A stretch of 64,000 nucleotides of DNA, from contig NIVC01000172.1 in the NCBI GenBank assembly GCA_002269645.1, positions 396,558 through 460,557 of the forward strand, in the 5' to 3' direction. A program made the position numbers and the translations under genes. Shown here piece after piece: positions 1 to 63,038 of this stretch. Every line of letters starts with the position of its first letter. Position 1 is the first letter of the stretch. The notes beneath the pieces were generated by a model. The model searched no databases and was not told the origin of the DNA. It saw nothing but the letters and a program-made list of their open reading frames with translations. This DNA comes from Macrostomum lignano. Its lineage: Eukaryota.

Positions 1-2667
1 CGTTACGGCAGAACGCACACTATACAAGTGCTGCGGCAACAACGAACTCCAACTCGAGTGGAATCACGAAACGACTACTCCCAACAACAGCAACTGATAC
101 CACCGAGACAAGCGCCAACACCTTCGGCACCCATCGAAACGATTGAACTTCGCGCCACCCTTCCGCCACCACGGAGACCACCACCAGAACCGAAAGTTCC
201 AAAATGGCCAGCAAACTACTCATACGCCTTTGTTTTGAAGCACCTAACAACAGCAACAATGATCAACCTGTGGTGCCGCAACGCACCGCATACTCGACAC
301 AGATGCACCGCCCTCATTGACAGCGGCGCCTCGATCTCCTGCATCTCACCGGCATTCGCCAAAAAGCTTCGAGTACCATTACAAGACACCAACATGAACG
401 CCATTTGTGCAGGAGGACAACAACTAAACCTCAACAAAAAGGCTACTTTTGATCTCGAAATCGATGGACGCAACCACAAGATATCGGCCTTTGTGCTCGA
501 CACCCCCGACGCTGACTATGATTTGCTCTTAGGAGTAGAAACCTTTAAGTCACTGGGAATACCACTACAATTCGACTACTCGAAAGCGACAGCTAAGCTT
601 GGCAATGAGCAATTTGCGATGCTCAACTCCATCCAACAGTTGCAAGAAACCTCTGCGGTGATGCAAAACAAGCTAGAGTTACCACCACAGACAACGCACC
701 AAGTCACGCTGAAACTCTCTTCTCGACATGAGCCAACGATTCCTGTCCTGTTCGTCCCTAAGGACCACACGATCCAGAAACACCAGTTGATGATACCAAC
801 TTGCCTTGTTTCTGTCAACCCGGACGGACAAACTATCACTGTGGAAATTGCCAACCCGTCGCTGACAACGCAAACCTTGCATCCTCAACAAGTCATTGGA
901 AATCTGGCTAACATGTCTGACTACAACATCGTGCGCCCAGCAGCTCAAATCAACAGTCTCCGCACGCTGCAACAAGAAGCACCTACGACTGACATGATCC
1001 GTACTCAACTCAAACAAGCCAACCAGCACCTCTCAACCGAGCAGAGTGAACAATTAGTTACTCTAATGAACAAGTACCGTGACGTCTTGGCACTACTGCC
1101 AACCGACATGGGTTGCTCTACCCAATACACGGCTCACCTGCATCTACACCCACACTCTGAGCCAGTCACGTCCAGACCCTATCCAATCGCTCATGGACTA
1201 CAAGAACGGTTTGATGAGCTCATCGAAAACTTCCGTCAAAAAGGAATCATCAGTCCGAGTGAATCGGAATACTCAAGTCCATGTCTTCTCGTGGAAAAGA
1301 AGACGCTCGACGCTCAAGGTCGCCGACAACTAAGACTCGTGACGGATTACCGAAAACTGAACAAGCTAATTCGTGCTCCTAGCATCCGACCTCCGAAGAT
1401 TCCGGATTTGCTACATCGATTGAAGAACGCTAAACTGTACACACTCTGTGACCTAGCAGATGCTTTCTACCAAGTTCGGATCGATCCAGAAAGCACAAAA
1501 TACACTGCGTTCATTGCACCCAACGGCCTACTTTGGGAATTCAATCGACTACCTCAAGGACTCAAGTCCAGTCCTAGCTTAATGTGCCGTCTTGTAGCAT
1601 TGTTAACAGCTGACTCTCCAAATCAGATTGCCTACTTGGATGACGTCATGCTCATCGCCGAAGACTTCACCGGCATGCTCAAAGAAATCGAACGCTTCTT
1701 CCAAAAGTTACGACATCATGGATTGCGAATTTCACTACGAAAATGCATCTTTGCTAAAACAGAGGTACAATATCTTGGATTTGTTGTTTCTGCTCAAGGC
1801 ATTAGACCAGCCCCAGCCTTATCGAGAAAATCAAACCTTTCCTGTGCCTCAACGGTTAAACAACTACAATCTTTCCTTGGACTTGCAAATTTCTACCGAA
1901 CGCACATTGCTGGCTACTCACGAGTAGTACAGCCACTTCTGAGTATTATCAAAAATACTTCAAAACCCAACAAATTCGTCTGGACGAACGCTGCGCAAAC
2001 AGCCTTTGAAAAGCTGAAACAACTTCTCTCTACGGATATACTACTGGTTCATCCAAATCCGCGAAAACCGTACTTCCTGCACACTGATGCCTCGGATACC
2101 GCCATTGGAGCAGTACTATCACAGCTAGACGACAGCAACCACCAACGCCCGGTTGCCTACATTTCTAAGACGTTAAGCTCAACTGAACAACGCTACCCAC
2201 CGATTGAACGCGAAGCATACGCCATCTATTGGGCAATAAAGAAGCTACACGTGTTCCTCTACGCTTCTTACCAACAGTTCCACGTCTTCACTGATCACCA
2301 GCCACTCAAGAGTCTATTCAGTGACAAGCAGCCAATTTCAAAACGACTTCAGAAGTGGATTCTAGCGCTACAAGATTACAACTTCACTCTCAACTATGTG
2401 AAAGGCAAATCAAACGTAGTAGCGGACTGCCTTTCACGCATCCCCAAAGTCTGTCAGATACAATCGCTGTCAACATTCAACGGACTGCAGGATGCCATTG
2501 ATCAAGACCCATTACTGTCAACAATCAAAGCACTTCTATCGAAAAATCACCCACTCACGAGCTGTCCAAGAAAGACCAACAATATGTTCGCCGACACCTG
2601 GCACGTTATTTCCTGGACGGAAACACTCTATACTTTGAAGATGACGAAGGACGAAGCCGCCTCGTGA
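1..2667 (+). CDS. pol: Pol (partial): Env cytoplasmic tail, aspartic protease, RT, RNase H
   Basis: Motifs ALIDSGAS, LPQGLKSSP, YLDD, TDAS...E...D. Frame is open from base 1. Three compensating 1-bp deletions at ~1815-1855 and a frameshift at ~2545 relative to copy 2. Confidence 0.93.
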   Translation, partial: RYGRTHTIQVLRQQRTPTRVESRNDYSQQQQLIPPRQAPTPSAPIETIELRATLPPPRRPPPEPKVPKWPANYSYAFVLKHLTTATMINLWCRNAPHTRHRCTALIDSGASISCISPAFAKKLRVPLQDTNMNAICAGGQQLNLNKKATFDLEIDGRNHKISAFVLDTPDADYDLLLGVETFKSLGIPLQFDYSKATAKLGNEQFAMLNSIQQLQETSAVMQNKLELPPQTTHQVTLKLSSRHEPTIPVLFVPKDHTIQKHQLMIPTCLVSVNPDGQTITVEIANPSLTTQTLHPQQVIGNLANMSDYNIVRPAAQINSLRTLQQEAPTTDMIRTQLKQANQHLSTEQSEQLVTLMNKYRDVLALLPTDMGCSTQYTAHLHLHPHSEPVTSRPYPIAHGLQERFDELIENFRQKGIISPSESEYSSPCLLVEKKTLDAQGRRQLRLVTDYRKLNKLIRAPSIRPPKIPDLLHRLKNAKLYTLCDLADAFYQVRIDPESTKYTAFIAPNGLLWEFNRLPQGLKSSPSLMCRLVALLTADSPNQIAYLDDVMLIAEDFTGMLKEIERFFQKLRHHGLRISLRKCIFAKTEVQYLGFVVSAQGIRPAPALSRKSNLSCASTVKQLQSFLGLANFYRTHIAGYSRVVQPLLSIIKNTSKPNKFVWTNAAQTAFEKLKQLLSTDILLVHPNPRKPYFLHTDASDTAIGAVLSQLDDSNHQRPVAYISKTLSSTEQRYPPIEREAYAIYWAIKKLHVFLYASYQQFHVFTDHQPLKSLFSDKQPISKRLQKWILALQDYNFTLNYVKGKSNVVADCLSRIPKVCQIQSLSTFNGLQDAIDQDPLLSTIKALLSKNHPLTSCPRKTNNMFADTWHVISWTETLYTLKMTKDEAAS

Positions 2668-3914
2668 TACCAACACGCTATCGTGAAGCTCTTTTGACAA
2701 GTAACCACTCGACAGCCCTTGGTGGTCATCTAGGTCACCAAAAGACAGCAGACAAAATCAGTCATTTCTACTACTGGCCTACACTACGGCAAGACGTCTT
2801 CAATTTCATTAACAACTGCGAAATCTGCCACAAAGCGAAAACAGCACCTCGACTGCGACCGCTGCACAAAGCCGTCAAATTCAACGAGGTTTTCTCTCAT
2901 TTGGCTATCGACCTTGTAGGTCCACTGCCACCAGCTTCACACGGCCGCGACGTCTACAAGTACATACTCACAGCCCAATGCGGCGTTAGCAAATTCCTGT
3001 TCACTATCCCGCTAACTGAGACAACTTCTGCAACTATCTGCAACAACCTCTTCAACCGTGTGTTCGCTTTCGCAGGACTACCAGCACACATCATCTCAGA
3101 TAACGGACCCCAATTCATCTCGCAAGAATTTCGAGAGTTTATGGGTGCCCTTGGAATCCATCTAATCTACACCTCGGTGTACCAACCATCCAGCAACTTC
3201 GTCGAACGCGCACACAAGACACTGAAGCAAACCCTTACGGCCTTTGTCCATGACAAACCAGATCTCTGGATTGACTTCCTACCTGCGGTGACACTAGCAA
3301 TCAATACCGCCGCACACTCAACGATGAATGAATCACCATTCTACTTGTTCTTCGCTCGAGACTTCCTGCCACCCAACGCACGGATCATGGAACACCAGAC
3401 AACTGCATACATGGACGTTATTAAACCAGTCAATTTGACCTGTTCAGCTATTTTGCTTGCCAGAGAAGTCGCCAAGGAACTTCTGCACAACTCAGCTGAA
3501 CAGCGCGCTGAAAACTCTGACAAGAAGATCAACCGCCGCTACATACGCCCAGGTGCACGATGCTACTTGGATGTCTCAGCAACAAAGGAGACAAAATTCT
3601 CCAATCCTTATCGTGGCCCAATGCGTCTATTAGCATGGCTCTCCGATCAGAACGCACTGATTTCTGACGTCAACCGACCAAGCGAACGACCAATCGTGGT
3701 GCATGCCTCCAAGCTGAAACCATGGCCTGGAGATGGACTCAGCGCTGGACCTAGTCACCTACCTGAGTTCACAACTGATGACATTCAGGTCCACCACAAC
3801 CATCGGCCGCCATTGAGCAAGTCCATCGCGCTGCAAACCACGTCTACTGATGAGCCACCAGTTCAGCCACAGACGCATGGCTACAACCTAAGATCAAAGA
3901 ACAAGAAGTCGTGA
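2664..3914 (+). CDS. Integrase (C-terminal part of Pol)
   Basis: HHCC zinc finger (H-x6-H...CEIC), DDE triad (AIDLVG, SDNGPQF, VERAH), GP-containing C-terminal module. Joined to RH in copy 2. Confidence 0.95.
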   Translation: MIPTRYREALLTSNHSTALGGHLGHQKTADKISHFYYWPTLRQDVFNFINNCEICHKAKTAPRLRPLHKAVKFNEVFSHLAIDLVGPLPPASHGRDVYKYILTAQCGVSKFLFTIPLTETTSATICNNLFNRVFAFAGLPAHIISDNGPQFISQEFREFMGALGIHLIYTSVYQPSSNFVERAHKTLKQTLTAFVHDKPDLWIDFLPAVTLAINTAAHSTMNESPFYLFFARDFLPPNARIMEHQTTAYMDVIKPVNLTCSAILLAREVAKELLHNSAEQRAENSDKKINRRYIRPGARCYLDVSATKETKFSNPYRGPMRLLAWLSDQNALISDVNRPSERPIVVHASKLKPWPGDGLSAGPSHLPEFTTDDIQVHHNHRPPLSKSIALQTTSTDEPPVQPQTHGYNLRSKNKKS

Positions 3915-4195
3915 ATGATCAAAAAACCTTCTAAACTTCTTTTCTCCTTTCTTTTCCTTAACTGACAATATTGCTTTCTCTTCCTTTCTTTCTCTTCTTT
4001 TTTCTTTCCTTCTTTTCTAGCTTTTGCTCTCTCTCTGCATTGCGACACTTTACGTGACTATAATGAACTTTTATTTTCCGTTTTATCAACAAAAGCTACA
4101 AAAAATTTCTCTCTTTTCCCTCTTTACATTGCAGAGCTCACACGCTAAAACAATATTTTGTGTATCTATTGCTTTTCTCCTTTTTCCTTTCTCTT

Positions 4196-5152
4196 ATGGA
4201 TCCATTTCCGCAACCAGTGGATATCCGACCACAGTTAAATCATGATCTTATTTGCCTCGCAACCGTTGTTGCTTGGTTCACTGAAGCAATATTTTATTCT
4301 GAAACTATTGGTGAACACCAACGGCTACGCATGGCCTCCGCTTTCTTCTCTCGTTTTTATGTTATCCGCTGCCATCGCTTTTATCCTAAGATGCTCCGCG
4401 TTTTACGAAATAGTCTATTTGGTATGCTGCGTCGTACTCACTCACGACCACGTATACAGAACTTTTCTCCCACTATGAATGATGTTCTCAGCCGCAGCTT
4501 CGTACCAATCATACATTTTCTTTTCTCTCCTGATATGTCTATCGACGATTTCTTTCAACTCTCTGCTTCTACTCTCCCTCAATCATGCCTGCGCTTTAAC
4601 CAAGACACTTGGCCTTTGTTGCTTTCCTCTCTGCGCTACCCATGGCAACAATTCCGCCATGATGCTGCTAATCTTTCGGCGCAAAAGTTAACTTCTACGC
4701 TCCAAAACTATTTAACCTCCTTCGATTCTCTCGCCCCTTATGTTTATCAAATTTTTCCTCCATTTTCTCCTCGTGCTACTAAGAGCGCTATCATACGCAC
4801 GCTAAATCGTTTGTATCCGCACAATTTTTTCTTTACCCACGCTGTTTTCATTCTCTCAACGCGTTCAAGAAACTTTGCTTTTATAATTATCGATTTTTAT
4901 TCTCGCTCGGTAGTTGCCCATACTATCTTCCCTTTCTCTTGTCCTCCGCTTCGTCGATATTTATACGATATTCACCGTATACGAAATGCTCTTGTTGGCT
5001 ACCCTAACACCTTGCCAGAGTATGCCGCTCTTCATACCTTCTCCATCAAGCGTATTCAGCATTCTCCTCCTTCTGATCTTAATATTAATTTTGCTCGACT
5101 GGCATACGCTCTTTTTTATGACTTGATTCACCATCATCACTCACTATTTTAA
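4196..5152 (+). CDS. Orphan accessory ORF-X (~318 aa) downstream of integrase
   Basis: Long open frame in T-rich DNA. ATG at 4196 follows a polypyrimidine tract and AG. No family recognised. Confidence 0.6.
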   Translation: MDPFPQPVDIRPQLNHDLICLATVVAWFTEAIFYSETIGEHQRLRMASAFFSRFYVIRCHRFYPKMLRVLRNSLFGMLRRTHSRPRIQNFSPTMNDVLSRSFVPIIHFLFSPDMSIDDFFQLSASTLPQSCLRFNQDTWPLLLSSLRYPWQQFRHDAANLSAQKLTSTLQNYLTSFDSLAPYVYQIFPPFSPRATKSAIIRTLNRLYPHNFFFTHAVFILSTRSRNFAFIIIDFYSRSVVAHTIFPFSCPPLRRYLYDIHRIRNALVGYPNTLPEYAALHTFSIKRIQHSPPSDLNINFARLAYALFYDLIHHHHSLF

Positions 5153-5334
5153 TCCGCTTTTTCTTCAATATTGAGCGCTGAAACACTACAAAAATTGTTC
5201 AAAAATACTCAAAAAAATATTTTCCGTTCTTCTGCCTATTACCCCTCCGCTCTTTTGCGCTCACTTGTGTAAAGCTTATGTTATTTTTCTCTGTTATTCT
5301 GTCAACTGCTTTTTCAAAAGTCATCACGCGCTAG

Positions 5335-5390
5335 CCTGCTCAACCCTGCTCAACCCTGCTCAACCCTGCTCAACCCTGCCCAACCCTGAC
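5335..5390 (+). repeat. 10-bp tandem repeat (caaccctgct) x~5.5
   Basis: Read directly. Also present at 19621-19676. Confidence 0.9.
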
Positions 5391-5707
5391 CTACACGACT
5401 GCTGCTCTGTGCCTGGTCACTGCCAATTGCTGTCTCTGGCGCTGCTTCAACCAAATTCATGCCACAACCTTGATCTACGCAGCCATCGCCCTACACTATG
5501 CCTGGTCTCTGCAAATCGCTGTCCCTGGCGCTGCTTTCACCTAAGTCAACCAACTAGCACTAAAGCATACGGCTCAACAACGTTTGTTCCTTCATGACTG
5601 CACAGTCTGCTCATCTGACAACTTCGGCATCACATCAAGTGGTGGCCCTGAAAAGGGCCGTTTCAACATTCAAAAGACCGGCAGAGCCGACAGAGCAACC
5701 AGGGCTC

Positions 5708-5977
5708 TTACACGGCCGCTTCTGCCGACTCGGCCGGCGGCGCTTCTTCATCAGCCGCAGCAGCCGATGCCTCAGGCGCGCCCGACCGACAACAGTTGCG
5801 CCGACAACAACGACAGCAACGGCAACATTGGCACAGCAGCAGCAGCAGCACCAGCACTCCCAGCACAGTGAGAAGGACGAGAGTGATCGCCCACCGCCTG
5901 TCGCCAAGGTCCCAATCATCTTGGGACCGCTTTGCTAAGTCGCCTAGCAAAAACCGCAAGTTCTTCCTTGTGCTCAT
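5708..5977 (-). CDS. Antisense 89-aa single-pass membrane protein with Cys/Arg-rich juxtamembrane motif
   Basis: ATG at 5977, TM segment WAITLVLLTVLGVLVLLLLL, then CQCCRCCRCCRRNCCR and an acidic tail. TATATAA on the minus strand at 6062-6056. Confidence 0.55.
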   Translation of the reverse strand: MSTRKNLRFLLGDLAKRSQDDWDLGDRRWAITLVLLTVLGVLVLLLLLCQCCRCCRCCRRNCCRSGAPEASAAAADEEAPPAESAEAAV

Positions 5978-6631
5978 GATGAATCGAATTTACCTGATTA
6001 TTAACCGTCAGTTAAAAAATCGCTTAACTCGCCTTGCTCCATTTTCAGCTTTGTGTTATATACCCCTTTGGACTGTACACTTTTTCCTAGAATTTTTATC
6101 TCCCTTTCGTTCCCCAGTTAAAAAAATTTAACTTCTACCTTGTACATGATTTATTAGCTGCGCGGTTCCTCGCTAACCCCCCCCCCCAACTTTCGCTGTA
6201 CAATGATTTTTATTACCCTCCTTTTAATTCAACGCGTTTTCATTTTAAGCTTGCGTCGTTCAACCCCCGCTTTGCTTTATACACCTATTTTATCGATTTT
6301 TTTTGGTTCACCCTTGCTACGTTTTATTCCATCCTTACTTTACCAACTAGTTTTGCCTCGCCTGACTAAATGCCCTTCTTCGCGCTCTCCTTCTTCTCGC
6401 TGTTTAAAATGATGTTGTACTTTAACCTATGTTACCTTGCTTAAATTGGTTCCCTTTTACTCAAACATTTTTGATAACATTATTCACTGCGCACTATTTT
6501 TTCTGCAACAACTTTTCACGTTTAATACAATGCGTTATCTTTTTCTGCAATTTTATCAATTTTAACCCCTGCTATACTTTTTCTGTTTTTATGCGCTCGG
6601 AGGGCCTCGCTTCCCCGAAAAATAGAGCGAA

Positions 6632-7288
6632 TGAAGTGATACATTTTGACTCAAGAAAGTTCCCATCCAGATTCAATGTATTTTAACCAATGAATGCGCT
6701 CCAAATAACAAAAGCCGAGGACACGACCCCAATCTCAACCAATGAAAAACAGTTATGTACCATCCAATGCGATCAAGACTGAAAAGTACTATAAAAGCTC
6801 ATGTTAACCAAGCAAGAAGCCCCCCCTTTCTCGCTCCGCCTCTCCTCGCCTTTTCTCTCCTTCGCCCTTCTCCCAGCCGACCTCCTTTTGACTAATTTTG
6901 ATTAACACAGTTAGGGTCTCAACCCAAACGCTAAAACTGATAAATTGACTCACTAAAGCTAAACCAACACCCAATCCACGTTCTACAATAGACTGAACCT
7001 TCGGTTCACCCGAACAATTAGAAACACCTTGTGACTTAAATCGAACGAGCTTCTTATTTGGAATTCCACCTTAGACATTATATTTTGTGAGAAAACATCT
7101 CGAGATCGTGACCATCAAATACAACGGTCTGTAAGTTAACATCAAGTGTTTGCATCATCAGGAAAAGTCAGTTGAATCCGCCGCCTCAGTTATTCGGCTC
7201 TCACATTGATATTTGAAGTAGAACAAGAGCCATAGAAGTGAGAGACCAGAAGAAGAACAATAACGCACATATATTTTAAAATATTTCA
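6632..7288 (+). repeat. LTR (shared between copy 1 and copy 2)
   Basis: The 3' end is fixed by divergence from the second LTR and by the PBS. The 5' end is inferred from purine tract gaaaaatagagcgaa (6617-6631) followed by TGAA, giving TGAA...TTCA termini. Confidence 0.75.
6687..6797 (+). promoter_or_regulatory. LTR U3 promoter: four CCAAT boxes and TATAAAAG
   Basis: CCAAT at 6687, 6729, 6739, 6764. TATAAAAG at 6790-6797. Confidence 0.6.
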
Positions 7289-7289
7289 C

Positions 7290-7303
7290 TGGTTCCCTGA
7301 CCG
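7290..7303 (+). other. Primer binding site complementary to tRNA-Glu 3' end
   Basis: TGGTTCCCTGACCG lies 1 nt after the LTR end. It is the reverse complement of ...CGGTCAGGGAACCA, as in eukaryotic tRNA-Glu(CUC). Confidence 0.85.
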
Positions 7304-9289
7304 TACTTTTCCTCCGATGCTTTTCACCACAATAGCCGCTATGCCCTGCATGGGGTAGACAGCTATAGGCGTGGCTGATGGGTGTGAACGGTTGGACTGG
7401 CTTCCCCCCCCCCTCCCCTTTGAGCATTCGAGACTGTCAATAATACATATTCGAAGAATGAATCGTAAATCACGAGCTCTCAAATTCAAATTCAGAATTC
7501 AAATCGGTTCTAAGTTTTGTCCAGTGCACTGAGACCTGATTCAAGTTATTTCAAATTCAAAGGATCCATGAAAGTCAATAAATTATCGTTCCGGAACAAT
7601 TACAATTTCAATTTCACTTCAATTCAAGAAACGTCGTCGAACGTCTGATATCGAGTTCTTATTCTCAAGCCTCAGAGCTTCAATGCAGAAATTCAATTCA
7701 GTTATTCGGATCCTCAATTGTTAAAGCTTCAAAGCTTCGATTTTTCAAAAGACCGCGGCATCATCAATTGTTCAAGTTTATTTAATGTTGGACGCCTCTT
7801 CCTTCACTGCTTTTCCACAGAATAGCAAAGTCTGCTCTGGATTTCTTCATATATATTTGAAACTCTCCAAAGCGACTGAGCCATTCGATTTCCTCCTCGG
7901 TTTTTCCCAGTGTGTGGCCACATCTAGAAAACTGGCTTATCTTAGATTCTCTGCGCCGTTAAGCGCCCGAAAGAAAGAACGAAAACGCAAAAAACCTGAC
8001 GAGCTATTCCAACCAAGTCACTACAGTAAACATCAATCAAAATCTGGAGCCACCACTTTCTTGCTGTCAGAAAACTTTTTCGCTTATCAGACAGGTTGCT
8101 TGTCTAACCATTCATTATCTTCCTTGATTAAAGCCCAAGATTCGCTGTTTGCCAAGCCTGCGTGCTTCATCTGGAAAACCTTGCTTATTTTCGTAGACCG
8201 CTTGCCTAGCCTTCCATCACTTTTTCTTGATTAAACAATCCAAACTCACTGTTTGCAAAGCCCACGAGCCCCATCCATCAAATCCTCATCGACCCAAGTT
8301 TGTTTTTTCGGATTGCTGATTCTGGCGGTTGCCCTTTATAGATCATTTTGATGTAGAGATTAGGATGCTAGGGAATTTTCTTGTGTGTTTATTCAGCTTC
8401 AGTGCCCTCCAACAAATCCTTATCTTAAACAAGCTGCCCAAGTCAGACTTCGCGCGCATACTTAATCTCCTAGAGAGACCTCCTTTCTTAATTAAAGCCA
8501 TCAATCAACTTCATTTCCCACGAGAAAATCTTTTCCTTAATCAAACTGTCCAGGCCAGCTCCATCCTGCCACTCACTCTCCGGTTCAGCGACCTTTTCAC
8601 GATCTCTGATAAACAATTTCCCCAGGAATTTTTTTCCTTTCCTAGCCATTTCCCGTTTTTGTATGATGGATTAAGATCCAAACAACTTCTACTTTTCTCT
8701 CATCTCCCTATTGCCAAAGGCAATACATGTTTAGTGTTCCTCAGCACCGACTCCCCGAGCTCCATACATGTACCATAATCTTTCCTTGTCTCTTGTTCAT
8801 GGTTTTCTTTCTATCATTGTCCTCGTTACGTCTATAATTGCATTGCAAAAATACTACTTCAAAATAACCATTAGATCGCAAAAATAATAAAATTTGAAAA
8901 CACAAAAAAAACAATACCATTGCTTATAGTTCATCTCGTATAATCCGTACTGCTCTTATCATGTTAAAGTTACAAAATGATCAGTCCGATCAATAAAAAA
9001 TTATAAAATTTTCAAAAAAATTAAAAAATAGCAAATTTATAAAACTACAAAAACATTACTCTACGTTTGCTTAAAATTATGAAATCAACCCCCTAGCTGA
9101 AACTCGTCAGATAGTTCAAAATTCAAATTCGAAATTCAAAAAGCCAGAACAAATTCTCAGAAGAAAACTGCCGACTTCAAGAAAAAGAATACTGCCGACT
9201 TCAATGATACAAATTCGATTTTATTGGCCACCACTGATGTCCGTCTAGTCCAACATTCAGGAGCTCCTTTATCAAATTCAGTTTCAATA

Positions 9290-9483
9290 AAAGTTTCAGA
9301 ACCGATCAAAACGGCAGTTCAATTCAAAATTTCAAAATTCAAAGTTTCAGAACCGATCAAAACGGCAGTTCAATTCAAAATTTCAAAATTCAAAGTTTCA
9401 GAACCGATCAAAACGGCAGTTCAATTCAAAATTTCAAAATTCAAAGTTTCAGAACCGATCAAAAGGCAGTTCAATTCAAAATT
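9290..9483 (+). repeat. 51-bp tandem repeat x~3.8 in the element leader
   Basis: aaagtttcagaaccgatcaaaacggcagttcaattcaaaatttcaaaattc repeats with period 51. Confidence 0.95.
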
Positions 9484-9682
9484 ACTTCGATTTCCAAAGC
9501 TCGTTGCAGATCACAGTTAAAAAATCACACAGTCTCTCTTTCTCTCCCTTCCCCAGCCAGTCCGCCAACCGCAACCCTGAAAGCCACTGCCGTTTGCTCA
9601 CCTTGAATTTGACACTCTACTTTGCTATTAGTTACATTTTTGTGCTATTGTTGCCTTGAAATTATTGATTGAATTCTTGTTA

Positions 9683-10984
9683 ATGACCACACCTGTCCGA
9701 GATTTACGTTCCGGACCAGTTTTTCAAAGCTCAAATATTAACAGACCCCCTGAACAAAATTTAGAAACTTCTGACCGCCAAATAGGTGAACAGCTCCCAC
9801 GAAATAGTTCACCAGTACCTAACCTGTTTATACCAGATAACGTTGAGTTTAATAACCCTCTCGCGGATCATTTTGAACACAACCGTGCACACTCACCAGC
9901 ACCCAGTTCCATCCTAACAGACGCGGACGAAACAGTTCAACCGGCCCCAAACGATATTGCTGAAGAACCTACTCTAGATATGGCTGATCAGGACGGCGCT
10001 CCCCATGTTGATGCTGCAGCGACAAATGCTGTCCGTGAACTTACTGACGTTATGAACCGCAGTCTGCAATTGCAATCAAACCATCCCGTCTCAGCTACTG
10101 CTCTTGCTGAAATTCGTCAATCCCTGAAAGGAATCGACCAAATGCATGACTTCCGCTCCTTCACTGAAGAGTTCGACTTGATCACACGCTCCTTTGGACT
10201 ATCGGAGAACGCAAAGATTCGGCTCTTCCCGCGACTACTGAATGACCTTCTTAAACTCGAATACAGTCGCCTCTCTGCCGCAGTCCAAGCCTCTTATCCA
10301 GCCACCATTGAGGCACTATCTCAACGCCTTCGGGAAGTAACCATTGGCTCGGCTCTAACGCTGCATAATGCAACAACCCGGAAACAACAGTACGGCGAAC
10401 CGTTCCTGTCTTATTTCACCGACATTCGTCGAAAGCTCAGGTCAGCTATGCCGGAAATACCGGAAGAATTTCCGGAAGGTGCCGGTCCGGAAACACCACC
10501 CGCGAACCAAGCTGTCATCGACCAGCGCAACCGAGACTTCCTTGCTACCCTGATGGCTACGACTATCAACAATGCTCTGCCCTACATCAAACGAGAACTC
10601 TTGAAGCAAAATATCACCACGGAAAGTACGCTAATCAACAAGGCCATCCGCGCCGAACAAATCCGCGACTCCACCATGGACTCTGATGGCACTGACTTGA
10701 AAGCTCTCACAGAGCGTCTAACTACCTTAGAAAAAACGACGAAGGAAGCCAATCAGCAGGTGGTTGCCTCCCTGCAAACACAAACCAAGCCACCTATCGC
10801 TAATATGCAACAGAAGCCCACTTGTTATCATTGCGGTCGACCTGGACACTATGCCGCCGACTGTCGTCGAAGGAATGACCAACAACCTCGTCCCTTCCGA
10901 CCTAACTCAAGCGATCGAAGGAACACAGCTCAATACGGCTCTGATGCCCCGCGGATCGTTACCAGCAGGAACCGCCACGATTGA
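9683..10984 (+). CDS. gag: Gag (capsid and first CCHC zinc knuckle)
   Basis: Capsid-like helical region, MHR-like QQYGEPFLSY, knuckle CYHCGRPGHYAADC. First ATG in frame is at 9683. Confidence 0.9.
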   Translation: MTTPVRDLRSGPVFQSSNINRPPEQNLETSDRQIGEQLPRNSSPVPNLFIPDNVEFNNPLADHFEHNRAHSPAPSSILTDADETVQPAPNDIAEEPTLDMADQDGAPHVDAAATNAVRELTDVMNRSLQLQSNHPVSATALAEIRQSLKGIDQMHDFRSFTEEFDLITRSFGLSENAKIRLFPRLLNDLLKLEYSRLSAAVQASYPATIEALSQRLREVTIGSALTLHNATTRKQQYGEPFLSYFTDIRRKLRSAMPEIPEEFPEGAGPETPPANQAVIDQRNRDFLATLMATTINNALPYIKRELLKQNITTESTLINKAIRAEQIRDSTMDSDGTDLKALTERLTTLEKTTKEANQQVVASLQTQTKPPIANMQQKPTCYHCGRPGHYAADCRRRNDQQPRPFRPNSSDRRNTAQYGSDAPRIVTSRNRHD

Positions 10985-12063
10985 CCTGTAACTATTGCCG
11001 AAAACCAGGACACTCTATTAACCAGTGCCGACTACGAGCCCAACGTACACAAGGCTACGGTCCACCGGCGACACAACAATCACGATTTCCACCCCGTCAA
11101 GACTATGGAAACCGGCCTCAGCAACGCTATCCGCCTCGATACAACGGCGCCAACAATCAACGACAACCTCCGAGATTTGCGCAACAACAATATCCACCGA
11201 TACGCGCCATCACTGCTCAGGACCCTGAAACGTCCCACCTAGGATGGAATCAACAGCCGCAGATTGGATGGACGACTCACGACGCTCCCGAGTCTGCCCA
11301 ACTGATGCACATTGCTACAGTTGATGAACGCCCACCGACTTTTGGAAACGAAATTCGCTACTCTGGAGACGCTAAGCAGCTGAAATCCTTACTCAAAAAA
11401 CCGACTACTGCTTCTGCGACTATCAACTCTATCCGCCTTTGTACGGTTGAAAGAATGACTGACACCTACACTCCACCGACCAGCAACAACAACCGCGAGA
11501 AAACCGTGAAAGCTTCCGTCGGAATTCGCCGATCACTACTGACACTTTTTCTCCTGTGCCTAGCAACTTCACTCTTCGCACTAGCCAACGCTACGCCGGT
11601 AACGACGTCAACTCCACCATCGATTGAGAGACAATCTCACGAGGGCTTCATTGACACACCAATGGTCTGTCCGTACAACCAGATCCCACGAATTTTCACG
11701 ATACCACATGAGATCCGTTGTGAACAGCTCAAACACCAAACAACGCCGACACTCCCGTTGAAACTGGAACTTTACACAACAAACGTGGAAACCAGTTCCC
11801 TGGTTATGACTGTCTGTTTCCGCGAGAAAATCACTATTAGATGTGATAAGGCGGTGATAAGAACCTGGACATCCGCCCTGGTAGAGTTGGAACCGCAACC
11901 AGTCACTCAAGCTGATTGTGAAAACTGGGCACGAACAAAGCTATCTCCTGATGGATCATTAGTGTTAAAGACTGCGTCAACTCAGTCTATCCAACGCCTG
12001 CAATCGACATTCAACACGCAAAATGCTGTGCGTTGCACTCCGGTTCCCATTCAGAACAAATAG
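10945..12063 (+). CDS. Gag C-terminus (second CCHC knuckle), internal signal peptide, Env ectodomain N-part
   Basis: CNYCRKPGHSINQC, then RRSLLTLFLLCLATSLFALANA (11527-11592), then a Cys-rich region. In the -1 frame relative to gag. Confidence 0.8.
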   Translation, partial: CPADRYQQEPPRLTCNYCRKPGHSINQCRLRAQRTQGYGPPATQQSRFPPRQDYGNRPQQRYPPRYNGANNQRQPPRFAQQQYPPIRAITAQDPETSHLGWNQQPQIGWTTHDAPESAQLMHIATVDERPPTFGNEIRYSGDAKQLKSLLKKPTTASATINSIRLCTVERMTDTYTPPTSNNNREKTVKASVGIRRSLLTLFLLCLATSLFALANATPVTTSTPPSIERQSHEGFIDTPMVCPYNQIPRIFTIPHEIRCEQLKHQTTPTLPLKLELYTTNVETSSLVMTVCFREKITIRCDKAVIRTWTSALVELEPQPVTQADCENWARTKLSPDGSLVLKTASTQSIQRLQSTFNTQNAVRCTPVPIQNK

Positions 12064-15000
12064 TAACAACAGTGATCACCGGAATCCCAGCCTACTCAAC
12101 AGCAGATCAAAAAATGGAATCTTTGTCCTTCCCAATGGACAACTGCAAACTCACCGACAAATTTTGTACAATTAAAACAACTGCACAAGAAATGCGAGCT
12201 TTCAACCTACCTTTGCCAATACTAACATCCCCCTGGGATCCTTTGGAAACTGAAGCAATCTACCAAATTGACGTGAAAGGACCAAGACATCTAAATCTTA
12301 TTTGGACACCTCCACCACTCGCTGATTGTCCTTTAAAACCATTTCGTACTCTTGAAGGCAACTTAAACTCAGGCTTGTTCTTAACTAATGATCAAACATT
12401 GGGACTAACCTTCAACCCAGTGCCGTCGACTCACACTCTCACCTGCACTGGCGTCCGTAAGACGTTGTACCTTTCAACGCAAGGTCTATACGTAGACATC
12501 CTCGACAACAAAGAAGCAGAATTTCTCGCCACCTTACGAAGCCCATTAGAAGAAGCTACTCCAAAACCTCAAACTAGCGAAGAAACCACTTCTTCGAGAC
12601 AAAAACGTCGTTCACCACCAGCGATACTACCAACGCCACCAACAATATTACCCGTTCAGCAATCGACGACTCAACATCCTTTCACTACGACAACTCAGTC
12701 ACGACAATTCCTACCGCCGCAACCTTTACGACAAGAGCGACCTGATCATCCACCGACGTCAAGCACTTCTACAACAATGGCGCCAACAACTACGATACTA
12801 ACTACTACAAAATCAACACCAACAACTACAATTTTGACAACGACAACACCACCGACTACAACGACAACACCACCGACTACAACGACAACACCACCGACTA
12901 CAACGACAACACCACCGACTACAACGACAACACCACCGACTACAACGACAACACCACCGACTACAATGACAACACCACCAGCTACGACGACAATGCCACC
13001 GACTACAACGACAACAATACCTACCACAACCGTAACACCGACAACTTCAACAACCACCACTGCTACAACCTCAGCAGCAACAACGACAGCAGATTCAACT
13101 ACGATGACTACAAAAGTGACGACACAACCTCGTACCACCACCACTTTACCGCCAACAACCTCAACCTCTAGCAGCACAACCAGTGCACCAGCAAAGTCTG
13201 CAACCTCAACCTTCACGACAAACTCACCAGCGACAACAACAGATCCACAACTGGCTTCTATTCATACGAATCTAGCAGTTCCATATCACGAACCACAAGG
13301 TGGTCAACCGGATCTCCTACTACTACCACGCAACAAGCGAAGCACAGATGACAAAACCATCGCAGCCCCTTCAGGCAACTCTACTGCGCAACTTTCATCA
13401 ACGTTCGCATCCGCTGAACTTCTTGCTGGACAACTACAAGGAGCTGCTAGTAAAGCTCGAAAAGATCTTCTCCAAGTACAGAGGCAGCTGGCAACTACTC
13501 AATGCCTGATGTACGCAACTAATCTCAAGTACAATCGACAGTTATACTACACACAACCAACGCTCGCTGCTCGACTCTTATTAAATGATCCTTTCTTGCG
13601 AGCTAGATCCATTGCTGGATACCTCTTCGTCTACCAGTGCAAACCCCTACATCAGTTTCGCTTTGTCCAACCAAAGTACAAGACGAACCAATGCTTCACG
13701 CGCCCCCCACTGGAATTCCGCCTACAAAATTATACCGTTCTTGGATTTTTGGATACAACGACTCGTATTGTCTCCACAGCTACTCCAGCTCTAATCTCAT
13801 GCGACGCCTTCCCACACTACTACCTGCCTAAACAATCGATGCTATTCAAGACCACACTAAATTTTTCGAGGTTTGAACCTACAACCGCTAATGTCAGATC
13901 CGATGAAAACTATCGATTGTCCGATTTGCAAACTTCCGTCTCCGAGAGCATCTTCAAACCTATGGGAGATATCAATTATACTTCACTTCGTAGCCCAATA
14001 ACGGTGACCGACCTAATGCACCAGTTCATGCAAACTCGCGATTTTCTGATTACAGTTTTCAAACTTCCGAATCGAACACGACACAGGACAGCCCATGCTG
14101 ACAGTGCATTCCTGGACTCAAAACTAGCTCTCTTCAATCTATGGTCTTCGTCGATATTTAACTGGGATCGACTAGTCGCAAACTATCAAGAAAAGTTCGT
14201 CTTAACAGCAGCTGTAATCGTCTACATTGCCGTTATTATCTTCGTGTGCAATCTTGGCCGACTCTGCGTCGCCAGCACCATCCGTTACGGCAGAACGCAC
14301 ACTATACAAGTGCTGCGGCAACAACGAACTCCAACTCAAGTGGAATCACGAAACGACTACTCCCAACAACAGCAACTGATACCACCAAGACGAGCGCCAA
14401 CACCTTCGGCACCCATCGAAACGATTGAACTTCGTGCCACCCTTCCGCCACCACGGAGACCACCACCAGAACCGAAAGTTCCAAAATGGCCAGCAAACTA
14501 CTCATACGCCTTTGTTTTGAAGCACCTAACAACAGCAACAATGATCAACCTGTGGTGCCGCAACGCACCGCATACTCGACACAGATGCACCGCCCTCATT
14601 GACAGCGGCGCCTCGATCTCCTGCATCTCACCGGCATTCGCCAAAAAGCTTCGAGTACCATTACAAGACACCAACATGAACGCCATTTGTGCAGGAGGAC
14701 AACAACTAAACCTCAACAAAAAGGCTACTTTTGATCTCGAAATCGATGGACGCAACCACAAGATATCGGCCTTTGTGCTCGACACCCCCGACGCTGACTA
14801 TGATTTGCTCTTAGGAGTAGAAACCTTTAAGTCACTGGGAATACCACTACAATTCGACTACTCGAAAGCGACAGCTAAGCTTGGCAATGAGCAATTTGCG
14901 ATGCTCAACTCCATCCAACAGTTGCAAGAAACCTCTGCGGTGATGCAAAACAAGCTAGAGTTACCACCACAGACAACGCACCAAGTCACGCTGAAACTCT

Positions 15001-16493
15001 CTTCTCGACATGAGCCAACGATTCCTGTCCTGTTCGTCCCTAAGGACCACACGATCCAGAAACACCAGTTGATGATACCAACTTGCCTTGTTTCTGTCAA
15101 CCCGGACGGACAAACTATCACTGTGGAAATTGCCAACCCGTCGCTGACAACGCAAACCTTGCATCCTCAACAAGTCATTGGAAATCTGGCTAACATGTCT
15201 GACTACAACATCGTGCGCCCAGCAGCTCAAATCAACAGTCTCCGCACGCTGCAACAAGAAGCACCTACGACTGACATGATCCGTACTCAACTCAAACAAG
15301 CCAACCAGCACCTCTCAACCGAGCAGAGTGAACAATTAGTTACTCTAATGAACAAGTACCGTGACGTCTTGGCACTACTGCCAACCGACATGGGTTGCTC
15401 TACCCAATACACGGCTCACCTGCATCTACACCCACACTCTGAGCCAGTCACGTCCAGACCCTATCCAATCGCTCATGGACTACAAGAACGGTTTGATGAG
15501 CTCATCGAAAACTTCCGTCAAAAAGGAATCATCAGTCCGAGTGAATCGGAATACTCAAGTCCATGTCTTCTCGTGGAAAAGAAGACGCTCGACGCTCAAG
15601 GTCGCCGACAACTAAGACTCGTGACGGATTACCGAAAACTGAACAAGCTAATTCGTGCTCCTAGCATCCGACCTCCGAAGATTCCGGATTTGCTACATCG
15701 ATTGAAGAACGCTAAACTGTACACACTCTGTGACCTAGCAGATGCTTTCTACCAAGTTCGGATTGATCCAGAAAGCACAAAATACACTGCGTTCATTGCA
15801 CCCAACGGCCTACTTTGGGAATTCAATCGACTACCTCAAGGACTCAAGTCCAGTCCTAGCTTAATGTGCCGTCTTGTAGCATTGTTAACAGCTGACTCTC
15901 CAAATCAGATTGCCTACTTGGACGACGTCATGCTTATCGCCGAAGACTTCACCGGCATGCTCAAAGAAGTTGAACGCTTCTTCCAAAAGTTACGACATCA
16001 TGGATTGCGAATTTCACTACGAAAATGCATCTTTGCTAAAACAGAGGTACAATATCTTGGATTTGTTGTTTCTGCTCAAGGCATTAGACCAGCCCCCAGC
16101 CTTATCGAGAAAATCAAAACCTTTCCTGTGCCTCACACGGTTAAACAACTACAATCTTTTCTTGGACTTGCAAATTTCTACCGAACGCACATTGCTGGCT
16201 ACTCACGAGTAGTACAGCCACTTCTGAGTATTATCAAAAATACTTCAAAACCCAACAAATTCGTCTGGACGAACGCTGCGCAAACAGCCTTTGAAAAGCT
16301 GAAACAACTTCTCTCTACGGATATACTACTGGTTCATCCAAATCCGCGAAAACCGTACTTCCTGCACACTGATGCCTCGGATACCGCCATTGGAGCAGTA
16401 CTATCACAGCTAGACGACAGCAACCACCAACGCCCGGTTGCCTACATTTCTAAGACGTTAAGCTCAACTGAACAACGCTACCCCACCGATTGA
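12033..16493 (+). CDS. Env ectodomain, mucin-like insert, TM, protease, RT and RNase H in one open frame
   Basis: One 1486-codon ORF: RQKRR (12597), RNKR (13329), TM 14196-14249, DSG 14601, YLDD 15915. Confidence 0.92.
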   Translation: MHSGSHSEQIVTTVITGIPAYSTADQKMESLSFPMDNCKLTDKFCTIKTTAQEMRAFNLPLPILTSPWDPLETEAIYQIDVKGPRHLNLIWTPPPLADCPLKPFRTLEGNLNSGLFLTNDQTLGLTFNPVPSTHTLTCTGVRKTLYLSTQGLYVDILDNKEAEFLATLRSPLEEATPKPQTSEETTSSRQKRRSPPAILPTPPTILPVQQSTTQHPFTTTTQSRQFLPPQPLRQERPDHPPTSSTSTTMAPTTTILTTTKSTPTTTILTTTTPPTTTTTPPTTTTTPPTTTTTPPTTTTTPPTTTTTPPTTMTTPPATTTMPPTTTTTIPTTTVTPTTSTTTTATTSAATTTADSTTMTTKVTTQPRTTTTLPPTTSTSSSTTSAPAKSATSTFTTNSPATTTDPQLASIHTNLAVPYHEPQGGQPDLLLLPRNKRSTDDKTIAAPSGNSTAQLSSTFASAELLAGQLQGAASKARKDLLQVQRQLATTQCLMYATNLKYNRQLYYTQPTLAARLLLNDPFLRARSIAGYLFVYQCKPLHQFRFVQPKYKTNQCFTRPPLEFRLQNYTVLGFLDTTTRIVSTATPALISCDAFPHYYLPKQSMLFKTTLNFSRFEPTTANVRSDENYRLSDLQTSVSESIFKPMGDINYTSLRSPITVTDLMHQFMQTRDFLITVFKLPNRTRHRTAHADSAFLDSKLALFNLWSSSIFNWDRLVANYQEKFVLTAAVIVYIAVIIFVCNLGRLCVASTIRYGRTHTIQVLRQQRTPTQVESRNDYSQQQQLIPPRRAPTPSAPIETIELRATLPPPRRPPPEPKVPKWPANYSYAFVLKHLTTATMINLWCRNAPHTRHRCTALIDSGASISCISPAFAKKLRVPLQDTNMNAICAGGQQLNLNKKATFDLEIDGRNHKISAFVLDTPDADYDLLLGVETFKSLGIPLQFDYSKATAKLGNEQFAMLNSIQQLQETSAVMQNKLELPPQTTHQVTLKLSSRHEPTIPVLFVPKDHTIQKHQLMIPTCLVSVNPDGQTITVEIANPSLTTQTLHPQQVIGNLANMSDYNIVRPAAQINSLRTLQQEAPTTDMIRTQLKQANQHLSTEQSEQLVTLMNKYRDVLALLPTDMGCSTQYTAHLHLHPHSEPVTSRPYPIAHGLQERFDELIENFRQKGIISPSESEYSSPCLLVEKKTLDAQGRRQLRLVTDYRKLNKLIRAPSIRPPKIPDLLHRLKNAKLYTLCDLADAFYQVRIDPESTKYTAFIAPNGLLWEFNRLPQGLKSSPSLMCRLVALLTADSPNQIAYLDDVMLIAEDFTGMLKEVERFFQKLRHHGLRISLRKCIFAKTEVQYLGFVVSAQGIRPAPSLIEKIKTFPVPHTVKQLQSFLGLANFYRTHIAGYSRVVQPLLSIIKNTSKPNKFVWTNAAQTAFEKLKQLLSTDILLVHPNPRKPYFLHTDASDTAIGAVLSQLDDSNHQRPVAYISKTLSSTEQRYPTD
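12840..13030 (+). repeat. 21-bp coding tandem repeat (PPTTTTT)n
   Basis: acaccaccgactacaacgaca x~6, plus degenerate units. Confidence 0.9.
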
Positions 16494-18201
16494 ACGCGAA
16501 GCATACGCCATCTATTGGGCAATAAAGAAGCTACACGTGTTCCTCTACGCTTCTTACCAACAGTTCCACGTCTTCACTGATCACCAGCCACTCAAGAGTC
16601 TATTCAGTGACAAGCAGCCAATTTCAAAACGACTTCAGAAGTGGATTCTAGCGCTACAAGATTACAACTTCACTCTCAACTATGTGAAAGGCAAATCAAA
16701 CGTAGTAGCGGACTGCCTTTCACGCATCCCCAAAGTCTGTCAGATACAATCGCTGTCAACATTCAACGGACTGCAGGATGCCATTGATCAAGACCCATTA
16801 CTGTCAACAATCAAAGCACTTCTATCGAAAAAATCACCCACTCACGAGCTGTCCAAGAAAGACCAACAATATGTTCGCCGACACCTGGCACGTTATTTCC
16901 TGGACGGAAACACTCTATACTTTGAAGATGACGAAGGACGAAGCCGCCTCGTGATACCAACACGCTATCGTGAAGCTCTTTTGACAAGTAACCACTCGAC
17001 AGCCCTTGGTGGTCATCTAGGTCACCAAAAGACAGCAGACAAAATCAGTCATTTCTACTACTGGCCTACACTACGGCAAGACGTCTTCAATTTCATTAAC
17101 AACTGCGAAATCTGCCACAAAGCGAAAACAGCACCTCGACTGCGACCGCTGCACAAAGCCGTCAAATTCAACGAGGTTTTCTCTCATTTGGCTATCGACC
17201 TTGTAGGTCCACTGCCACCAGCTTCACACGGCCGCGACGTCTACAAGTACATACTCACAGCCCAATGCGGCGTTAGCAAATTCCTGTTCACAATCCCGCT
17301 AACTGAGACAACTTCTGCAACTATCTGCAACAACCTCTTCAACCGTGTGTTCGCTTTCGCAGGACTACCAGCACACATCATCTCAGATAACGGACCCCAA
17401 TTCATCTCGCAAGAATTTCGAGAGTTTATGGGTGCCCTTGGAATCCATCTAATCTACACCTCGGTGTACCAACCATCCAGCAACTTCGTCGAACGCGCAC
17501 ACAAGACACTGAAGCAAACCCTTACGGCCTTTGTCCATGACAAACCAGATCTCTGGATTGACTTCCTACCTGCGGTGACACTAGCAATCAATACCGCCGC
17601 ACACTCAACGATGAATGAATTACCATTCTACTTGTTCTTCGCTCGAGACTTCCTGCCACCCAACGCACGGATCATGGAACACCAGACAACTGCATACATG
17701 GACGTTATTAAACCAGTCAATTTGACCTGTTCAGCTATTTTGCTTGCCAGAGAAGTCGCCAAGGAACTTCTGCACAACTCAGCTGAACAGCGCGCTGAAA
17801 ACTCTGACAAGAAGATCAACCGCCGCTACATACGCCCAGGTGCACGATGCTACTTGGATGTCTCAGCAACAAAGGAGACAAAATTCTCCAATCCTTATCG
17901 TGGCCCAATGCGTCTATTAGCATGGCTCTCCGATCAGAACGCACTGATTTCTGACGTCAACCGACCAAGCGAACGACCAATCGTGGTGCATGCCTCCAAG
18001 CTGAAACCATGGCCTGGAGATGGACTCAGCGCTGGACCTAGTCACCTACCTGAGTTCACAACTGATGACATTCAGGTCCACCACAACCATCGGCCGCCAT
18101 TGAGCAAGTCCATCGCGCTGCAAACCACGTCTACTGATGAGCCACCAGTTCAGCCACAGACGCATGGCTACAACCTAAGATCAAAGAACAAGAAGTCGTG
18201 A
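16490..18201 (+). CDS. RNase H C-terminus and integrase (copy 2)
   Basis: Continues Pol after an extra C at ~16484 (ctaccccacc vs ctacccacc in copy 1). HHCC and DDE are intact. Confidence 0.93.
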
Positions 18202-18482
18202 ATGATCAAAAAACCTTCTAAACTTCTTTTCTCCTTTCTTTTCCTTAACTGACAATATTGCTTTCTCTTCCTTTCTTTCTCTTCTTTTTTCTTTCCTTCT
18301 TTTCTAGCTTTTGCTCTCTCTCTGCATTGCGACACTTTACGTGACTATAATGAACTTTTATTTTCCGTTTTATCAACAAAAGCTACAAAAAATTTCTCTC
18401 TTTTCCCTCTTTACATTGCAGAGCTCACACGCTAAAACAATATTTTGTGTATCTATTGCTTTTCTCCTTTTTCCTTTCTCTT

Positions 18483-19993: not shown

Positions 19994-20263
19994 TTACACG
20001 GCCGCTTCTGCCGACTCGGCCGGCGGCGCTTCTTCATCAGCCGCAGCAGCCGATGCCTCAGGCGCGCCCGACCGACAACAGTTGCGCCGACAACAACGAC
20101 AGCAACGGCAACATTGGCACAGCAGCAGCAGCAGCACCAGCACTCCCAGCACAGTGAGAAGGACGAGAGTGATCGCCCACCGCCTGTCGCCAAGGTCCCA
20201 ATCATCTTGGGACCGCTTTGCTAAGTCGCCTAGCAAAAACCGCAAGTTCTTCCTTGTGCTCAT
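19994..20263 (-). CDS. Antisense small TM Cys-rich ORF, copy 2
   Basis: Translation identical to 5708-5977. Confidence 0.55.
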   Translation of the reverse strand: MSTRKNLRFLLGDLAKRSQDDWDLGDRRWAITLVLLTVLGVLVLLLLLCQCCRCCRCCRRNCCRSGAPEASAAAADEEAPPAESAEAAV

Positions 20264-20916
20264 GATGAATCGAATTTACCTGATTATTAACCGTCAGTTA
20301 AAAAATCGCTTAACTCGCCTTGCTCCATTTTCAGCTTTGTGTTATATACCCCTTTGGACTGTACACTTTTTCCTAGAATTTTTATCTCCCTTTCGTTCCC
20401 CAGTTAAAAAAATTTAACTTCTACCTTGTACATGATTTATTAGCTGCGCGGTTCCTCGCTAACCCCCCCCCCCAACTTTCGCTGTACAATGATTTTTATT
20501 ACCCTCCTTTTAATTCAACGCGTTTTCATTTTAAGCTTGCGTCGTTCAACCCCGCTTTGCTTTATACACCTATTTTATCGATTTTTTTTGGTTCACCCTT
20601 GCTACGTTTTATTCCATCCTTACTTTACCAACTAGTTTTGCCTCGCCTGACTAAATGCCCTTCTTCGCGCTCTCCTTCTTCTCGCTGTTTAAAATGATGT
20701 TGTACTTTAACCTATGTTACCTTGCTTAAATTGGTTCCCTTTTACTCAAACATTTTTGATAACATTATTCACTGCGCACTATTTTTTCTGCAACAACTTT
20801 TCACGTTTAATACAATGCGTTATCTTTTTCTGCAATTTTATCAATTTTAACCCCTGCTATACTTTTTCTGTTTTTATGCGCTCGGAGGGCCTCGCTTCCC
20901 CGAAAAATAGAGCGAA

Positions 20917-21572
20917 TGAAGTGATACATTTTGACTCAAGAAAGTTCCCATCCAGATTCAATGTATTTTAACCAATGAATGCGCTCCAAATAACAAAAGC
21001 CGAGGACACGACCCCAATCTCAACCAATGAAAAACAGTTATGTACCATCCAATGCGATCAAGACTGAAAAGTACTATAAAAGCTCATGTTAACCAAGCAA
21101 GAAGCCCCCCTTTCTCGCTCCGCCTCTCCTCGCCTTTTCTCTCCTTCGCCCTTCTCCCAGCCGACCTCCTTTTGACTAATTTTGATTAACACAGTTAGGG
21201 TCTCAACCCAAACGCTAAAACTGATAAATTGACTCACTAAAGCTAAACCAACACCCAATCCACGTTCTACAATAGACTGAACCTTCGGTTCACCCGAACA
21301 ATTAGAAACACCTTGTGACTTAAATCGAACGAGCTTCTTATTTGGAATTCCACCTTAGACATTATATTTTGTGAGAAAACATCTCGAGATCGTGACCATC
21401 AAATACAACGGTCTGTAAGTTAACATCAAGTGTTTGCATCATCAGGAAAAGTCAGTTGAATCCGCCGCCTCAGTTATTCGGCTCTCACATTGATATTTGA
21501 AGTAGAACAAGAGCCATAGAAGTGAGAGACCAGAAGAAGAACAATAACGCACATATATTTTAAAATATTTCA
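20917..21572 (+). repeat. 3' LTR of copy 2
   Basis: Matches 6632-7288. Ends TTTCA and is followed by unrelated flank. Confidence 0.8.

Positions 21573-63006: not shown

Positions 63007-63038
<32 letters not shown>

Follow-up and report, generated by a model that had tools for sequence, protein, structure and literature searches.

In this work, we present the analysis of a retroelement found in a 64,000-nucleotide stretch of Macrostomum lignano DNA (contig NIVC01000172.1 of assembly GCA_002269645.1, forward strand, positions 396,558 to 460,557), referred to below as the window. Its segment 9683-18201 is part of a Ty3/gypsy element with the order gag-env-protease-reverse transcriptase (RT)-RNase H-integrase. 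We are fairly confident that this is a young, multi-copy GAG-ENV-POL element of the herpes simplex virus/glycoprotein B (HSV/gB) type, which would be expressed as one membrane-spanning polyprotein. The original prediction, made from the letters of the window, held such an order to be undescribed; the main text and table of PMC13524379 already report GAG-ENV-POL elements with a gB-type Env from flatworms, M. lignano included.

A probable single reading frame from gag to integrase

The landmarks on which the prediction was built (CCHC knuckles, signal, transmembrane (TM) helix, DSG, YLDD and RNase H) were all found in their places. Four plus-strand frames cover 9632-18201: according to Pfam the first two of them carry the CCHC knuckles, the third the protease, RT and the beginning of RNase H, and the fourth the remainder of RNase H with the integrase. 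A single stop-free frame (11952-16493, 1513 aa) leads, as proposed, from the middle of the ectodomain through the TM helix, protease and RT into RNase H. The window copy contains the three announced breaks (near 10950, 12040 and 16480), and the span from the gag ATG at 9683 to the integrase stop at 18201 corresponds to ~2839 codons, the protein length that had been postulated.

A search of the genome (G000) gave 25 matches, 12 of them near full length, both window copies included. Junctions between landmarks were scored at these 12 loci, the first one at six, the other six being cut before the ATG. Both landmarks shared one open frame at 4/6 loci for ATG-knuckle, 11/12 for knuckle-knuckle, 10/12 for knuckle-signal and 9/12 for signal-ectodomain; the steps inside the ectodomain gave 7/12, 8/11, 5/11 and 6/12. 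For the downstream part the counts were 8/12 (TM-protease), 5/12 (protease-RT), 9/12 (RT-RNase H), 7/12 (within RNase H), 6/12 (RNase H-integrase) and 10/12 (within integrase). None of the junctions is broken in every copy, and one natural frame of the family, 2069 aa in length, runs from the gag ATG through Env to the protease. The three window breaks are absent from 11/11, 8/11 and 11/11 other loci, respectively. Indels among the family loci are mostly private (98 of 125 ten-base bins were seen at one locus only); relative to the window copy, 191 frameshifting indels were counted over 11 loci, 69 of them in homopolymers.

The best Env homologue, a 2852-aa M. lignano protein (P0002), carries gag, env, protease, RT, RNase H and integrase in the same order and is 40-60% identical. 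It represents a sister family whose GenBank proteins of 2852-2859 aa share this order and which in G000 has stop-free frames of 2859-2866 aa at four of eight loci. Two more distant families of the same genome have frames of up to 2458 and 2538 aa, env included. Among proteins from other assemblies, P0043 and P0044 join env, TM, protease, RT, RNase H and integrase, and within P0027 and P0028 a knuckle, env and protease stand in one protein. A word-indexed homologue search with the env-protease part recovered one protein. Because the window breaks are not shared by most copies and the sister frames are unbroken at half of their loci, the single polyprotein is well supported, and the family most likely encodes one product of ~2.8 thousand aa, as judged from these frames.

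Programmed frameshift sites setting the ratios of Gag, Gag-Env and Gag-Env-Pol would offer another explanation of the breaks, since the open reading frames (ORFs) overlap at each of them and frameshifting is common in LTR (long terminal repeat) elements. We regard this as very improbable: the breaks are unshared, none of them is at a gene border (one separates the two knuckles, one falls within Env and one within RNase H), and the sister-family frames do without them. Moreover, slippery heptamers in register occur four times from the gag ATG to the protease, but never in the nucleocapsid-signal or the TM-protease interval. On comparison of the loci, the three breaks are most likely private errors or decay and not programmed recoding.

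The prediction had placed env between nucleocapsid and protease and had made the presence of this segment in other copies its test; env occupies the same place at all 12 loci of near full length, and at least three further G000 families have it there too. That it could be a single chance insertion, debris of host DNA or an artefact of assembly within an ordinary gag-pol element is suggested by the chimeric tandem described below and by the many small indels at the loci. In view of its constant place, of words of 10500-14800 recurring in 20 sequencing runs from 9 studies (word matches, without alignment) and of a gB homologue under purifying selection, such an origin deserves practically no credence. 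The listing of these runs named no RNA run.

At least four gag-env-pol families coexist in G000, with Env identities of about 97, 55, 34 and 27%, the last being present in dozens of copies. An internally deleted copy (G000:C1861:82211-86524) lacks about 11784-16172 and keeps a 1347-aa frame via RNase H and integrase; GT/AG was not found at the window ends matching this deletion. Contigs C2231 and C2767 share an apparent ~270-nt duplication within env.

A gB-type envelope and its proposed processing

The Cys-rich ectodomain, estimated earlier at ~880 aa, measures 868 aa with 14 Cys. An Env profile of 31 sequences (the query and 30 of its 36 homologues) was compared with the PDB, and all 29 matches were herpesvirus gB, the best with E 1.4e-15, spanning the ectodomain. 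An AlphaFold monomer model built with 34 sequences (mean predicted local distance difference test (pLDDT) 62, spacer disordered with pLDDT below 50) was matched by Foldseek to solved gB with E 3e-10 and to Nyavirus G, the top viral fold match, with E 7e-15. ESM Atlas leads for the C-terminal half were all below 0.9. Within the family, the ratio of non-synonymous to synonymous polymorphism (pN/pS) was 0.05-0.18 for the N-terminal and 0.08 for the C-terminal half of Env, 0.43 for the spacer between them, 0.09 for the TM-protease linker, 0.10 for the capsid region and 0.03 for RT-RNase H. On these profile, fold and polymorphism data, Env is a homologue of the herpesvirus-gB-type class III fusogens under purifying selection, in line with the fusogen homology that the prediction called for. 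An F-type Env was rejected, profile and fold matches both pointing to gB.

Just two segments of the 2069-aa natural frame, the signal and the TM helix, exceed a hydropathy of 1.6, so the topology predicted earlier is self-consistent with two hydrophobic segments; five basic residues precede the signal and one follows it. The same frame holds just two R-x-K/R-R motifs, flanking a 239-aa spacer (42% Thr), and both are present at 12/12 loci, 653-765 nt apart. P0044 has a far shorter stretch at the position of this mucin-like spacer.

The linker between TM and protease contains PSAP at 11/12 loci. PT/SAP, PPxY and YPxL-type motifs bind factors of the endosomal sorting complex required for transport (ESCRT) in retroviral Gag, and we searched for them in a sample of 24 of the 36 Env homologues together with P0043, P0044, P0073 and the window, GAG-ENV-POL status being shown for part of the rows, not for every one. 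Ten short fragments, a gene model of the own family and one repeat match were left out, and three rows without TM and two with short tails were dropped later. A linker with PT/SAP, PPxY or YPx(1-3)L was found in 11/23 homologues against 2.1 expected from shuffles, and in 9/21 without query and sister; luminal control stretches of the same length gave 1/23. Only two linker pairs are alignable. Set against permutations, PPxY occurred 6 times versus 3. By analogy with retroviral Gag, the linker motifs of the window element may serve ESCRT recruitment.

According to the mechanism we propose, a single polyprotein would be made, with Gag folding in the cytosol. The internal signal would send Env to the endoplasmic reticulum and signal peptidase would leave Gag on a C-terminal anchor, which may replace a matrix domain; Gag of the window copy starts with MTT, and therefore myristoylation at Gly2 is ruled out. 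The TM helix would stop transfer, keeping linker and Pol cytosolic and tethered, two furin cuts would release the glycosylated mucin spacer and prime the fusogen, and the linker with PSAP, which directly precedes the protease as p6 does in HIV, would recruit ESCRT for budding. Afterwards the protease would free capsid, nucleocapsid and Pol, and the enveloped particle might pass between cells, for instance from soma to germline (cf. Drosophila gypsy). Topology, signal cleavage, Gag anchoring, furin cleavage, the 1:1:1 ratio and infectivity are all predicted from sequence. More tentatively, and at somewhat less than even chances, we suggest an envelopment route unlike that of retroviruses: a matrix-less Gag held on the membrane from its C-terminal side by the Env signal, a late domain in the linker between Env tail and protease instead of in Gag, a furin-excised mucin that shields or primes the fusogen, capsid, fusogen, budding signal and enzymes 1:1 on one chain, and the 318-aa accessory factor described below. 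If true, it would show how a retrotransposon acquired an envelope while lacking both a matrix protein and an env mRNA of its own. How gB-type elements work is left open by the published surveys, and M. lignano is a transparent, transgenic-capable worm with at least four such families, some of them very young.

The frame could be continuous in DNA while Gag-Pol is translated from an RNA that bypasses Env through splicing or internal initiation; the element would then move intracellularly, with another level of Env and no 1:1:1 ratio. The automatic gene models P0001 and P0011 omit most of env (these are predictions only), the 20 ATG triplets of the 2.4-kb leader make translation control likely, and Gag usually far exceeds Pol in retroelements. 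We consider this explanation unlikely, though less so than those discussed above, as the TM-protease and knuckle-signal junctions are in frame in the window family, in the sister family and in distant relatives, and the low pN/pS of the linker speaks for strong selection on it.

Several results weigh against the membrane-spanning polyprotein with a functional gB-type Env. An end-to-end open frame is present at 0/12 loci of the window family. As a single sequence, Env matched HCMV (human cytomegalovirus) gB weakly (E 0.12), its C-terminal half reached Pfam PF24664 with E 8.5e-4, below the curated cut-off, and direct searches of PDB and Pfam with the N-terminal half gave zero matches. Foldseek gave low TM-scores (0.26 relative to query length, root-mean-square deviation ~13 A). 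As regards the linkers, 12/23 have no late motif at all, YPxL exceeded the permutations by 3 versus 2 and PT/SAP tied at 4 versus 4, and the test was post hoc, its motif set having been picked after PSAP was seen. Herpes gB requires partner glycoproteins. Finally, the authors of PMC13524379 call cell entry by gB-type elements unknown in its main text.

Element borders, accessory frame and other features of the window

LTR borders were set by comparing the flanks of other copies. The pattern of a primer-binding site (PBS) for tRNA-Glu had 32 genomic matches versus 0 for a control, and 2/2 of the matching loci scanned were tRNA-Glu genes. Target-site duplications (TSDs) are 4 bp long. One insertion has matching TSDs and LTRs with zero substitutions and is therefore very young. 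Nine right flanks examined fall at eight different sites, that is, at least eight distinct insertions. No canonical heat-shock element was found in the LTR or leader. Coordinates of all features are listed in Table 1.

Table 1. Features of the element and of its tandem partner in the window
Feature	Position	Strand	Remarks
Copy 1, 3' half (linker, pol, accessory ORF)	1..6631	+	99.7% identical to copy 2, in chimeric tandem
LTR common to copy 1 (as 3' LTR) and copy 2 (as 5' LTR), TG...CA	6632..7288	+	657 nt; zero substitutions vs LTR 20917-21572
PBS, complement of host tRNA-Glu 3' end	7290..7303	+	pattern matches and tRNA-Glu loci
5' leader, 2.4 kb	7289..9682	+	20 ATG triplets; 51-nt tandem repeat (9290-9483)
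Gag: presumed capsid region (without Pfam match), two CCHC knuckles, Q/P/T-rich spacer	9683..11526	+	window copy broken near 10950
CCHC knuckles of Gag	10823-10864 and 10987-11028	+	
Internal signal sequence, basic N-side, A-x-A signal-peptidase-type end	11527..11592	+	putative cleavage
Env N-terminal half, beta-rich, probably gB domains I-II	11593..12596	+	window copy broken near 12040
Furin motif 1 (12597), 239-aa mucin-like spacer (42% Thr, zero Cys), furin motif 2 (13329-13340)	12597..13340	+	
Env C-terminal half: long central helix, gB domain III-V-like region	13341..14195	+	5 N-glycosylation sequons
TM helix	14196..14249	+	predicted stop-transfer
Pro-rich TM-protease linker	14250..14550	+	PSAP late-domain motif at 14403-14414
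Pol: aspartic protease (DSG 14601), RT (YLDD 15915), RNase H, integrase (H2C2 and rve)	14551..18201	+	window copy broken near 16480
Orphan accessory ORF, 318 aa	18483..19438	+	split in copy 2, open in copy 1 (4196-5152)
Purine-rich polypurine tract (PPT)	20901..20916	+	directly 5' of 3' LTR
3' LTR, TG...CA	20917..21572	+	656 nt; then 4-bp target duplication matching 5' flank at two other contigs

Segments 1-7288 and 14283-21572 differ by 12 substitutions and 8 single-base indels (7285 nt compared). Copy 1 agrees in its left flank and LTR with one insertion, the LTR in the middle and that on the right, together with the right flank, correspond to a second, and contig C2365 of G000 carries the reciprocal mix of flank and LTR. 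Judged by these flanks, the tandem pair (1-21572) is a recombinant or assembly join of two different insertions, and copy 1 is therefore not independent evidence on copy 2. The prediction had relied on it as an independent witness; that part does not hold, and the independent support comes from the dispersed copies instead.

The 318-aa ORF 3' of the integrase is open at 14/18 family loci and has zero matches at sister-family loci. Its pN/pS of 0.22-0.67 (21 pairs) places it under purifying selection. Pfam gave no family for it, none of 728 candidates (174-557 aa) proved homologous, and a useful PDB match was not obtained; a single-sequence model reached pLDDT 37, its best Z being 5.2. Weak Atlas leads pointed to clan CE proteases (0.81-0.83), and the 8 copies compared all have His215 and Asp233. 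Clan CE identity is not claimed, Cys being absent at the position where the nucleophile would be expected. Partial copies of this ORF (72-82%) occur at G000:C87, C2152 and C2121. A low-complexity plus-strand ORF lies at 19938-20417 and 5652-6131, without a useful Pfam match, and a frame of 147-159 aa recurs at a similar position in most 3' regions examined.

Elsewhere in the window, two copies of a glycosyl hydrolase family 1 gene (~24100-28750, minus strand, and ~59900-64000, plus strand) are inverted to each other, with exon regions 89-96% alike. Terminal inverted repeats of 470 nt, 97% complementary, surround 1.1 kb at 50511-52585, which by this structure is likely a non-autonomous DNA transposon. 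A P21-Rho-binding (CRIB) domain (37481-38482, minus strand, E 2.6e-23) marks a host-gene exon amid minisatellite arrays.

Comparison with known systems

The Pol order protease-RT-RNase H-integrase is that of Ty3/gypsy elements (Metaviridae), and TG...CA LTRs, a tRNA PBS, a PPT and a short TSD were found as in this group. Among solved structures Ty3 RT ranks nearest by similarity (E 9e-54), the next groups following at 2e-33 to 5e-31. Pol is 99% identical to a named Macrostomum lignano protein. Env between gag and pol, the gB-like ectodomain between signal and TM, and the flatworm host place the element in the GAG-ENV-POL HSV/gB type. Elements of the BEL/Pao group with env (Tas, Cer, Anakin) were excluded, as here env precedes the protease and RT is Ty3-like, and so were insect errantiviruses with an F-type env after pol, on account of order and gB-type Env.

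The nematode endogenous retroviruses (NERVs) reportedly have a continuous gag-env-pro-pol ORF with a Nyamiviridae-like env and extra ORFs, and are said to be restricted to chromadorean nematodes. The window element resembles them in env preceding pol and, at the family level, in a continuous ORF (unbroken in the sister family; no window-family locus is open throughout). It would differ from NERVs in its flatworm host and in lacking a helicase ORF. P0015 combines an Env homologue with an AAA_11 helicase domain in one protein; a helicase ORF is reportedly known from nematode elements.

The sister M. lignano family (PAA86625.1, PAA47950.1, PAA65221.1 and PAA87129.1, annotated as hypothetical protein or RNA-directed DNA polymerase) shares the single 2852-2859-aa gag-env-pol protein at 40-60% identity (42% in Gag), the Thr-rich spacer and a linker with PSAP plus LYPxL. 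It differs in having one canonical CCHC and R-x-x-R only as the first basic site, and its loci leave the 318-aa ORF unmatched. P0043, filed at NCBI under a Kangiellaceae bacterial metagenome-assembled genome, joins env, TM and pol in one polyprotein and shares 61% identity with the sister RT-RNase H; by its sequence it is probably animal DNA in a bacterial bin.

Herpesvirus gB and the class III glycoproteins of mononegaviruses and chuviruses share with Env the match of profile and fold over the whole ectodomain and a furin site before the central helix. Env differs from them in standing inside a retroelement polyprotein, in its second furin motif and the 239-aa mucin spacer, and identity is 8-11% in the top structural alignments. 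Flaviviruses, hepaciviruses and alphaviruses have membrane-spanning polyproteins, with structural and replicative proteins in one ORF. For the planarian nidovirus PSCNV, Saberi 2018 (PMC6211748) describes one ORF encoding a polyprotein for which cleavage by signal peptidase and furin is predicted. The likeness to these viral polyproteins is analogy only; homology is not claimed.

The mucin spacer between furin sites, the linker late motifs and the 318-aa ORF were not found in the consulted parts of the literature on such elements. The main text of PMC13524379 makes no mention of polyprotein, fused, frameshift, late domain, ESCRT or mucin, its preprint in the part consulted none of polyprotein or fused, and the main text of Ustyantsev 2025 (PMC12801592) none of envelope or glycoprotein. 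No paper on late domains or topology in such elements was found in a search that covered few subscription papers.

The closest described relatives are those of Chary & Hayashi (eLife 2026, PMC13524379), whose main text reports that elements of Nematoda, Bryozoa and Platyhelminthes have HSV/gB-type ENV only, in GAG-ENV-POL order, and are non-monophyletic, crediting the nematode form to Sacco et al. 2022 (J Gen Virol 103:001739). Of the elements in their table, 9 are from flatworms (one of these from M. lignano), 10 from bryozoans and 36 from nematodes. As far as they are described there, the window element is like them in carrying a gB-type env between its gag and a pol of the Ty3/gypsy kind, in having LTRs and multiple copies, and in its flatworm host. 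The listed M. lignano element, Mlig_errantivirus_2, is given an LTR of ~864 nt, another PBS and 9.7 kb between LTR starts, whereas the window family has a 656-nt LTR, a tRNA-Glu PBS and an LTR spacing of 14.3 kb; identity of the two is ruled out by these three features. In G000 the PBS motif of Mlig_errantivirus_2 occurs upstream of the family 27% identical in Env (e.g. C1470). The window family is thus distinct from the listed M. lignano element and constitutes a new family of a known type.

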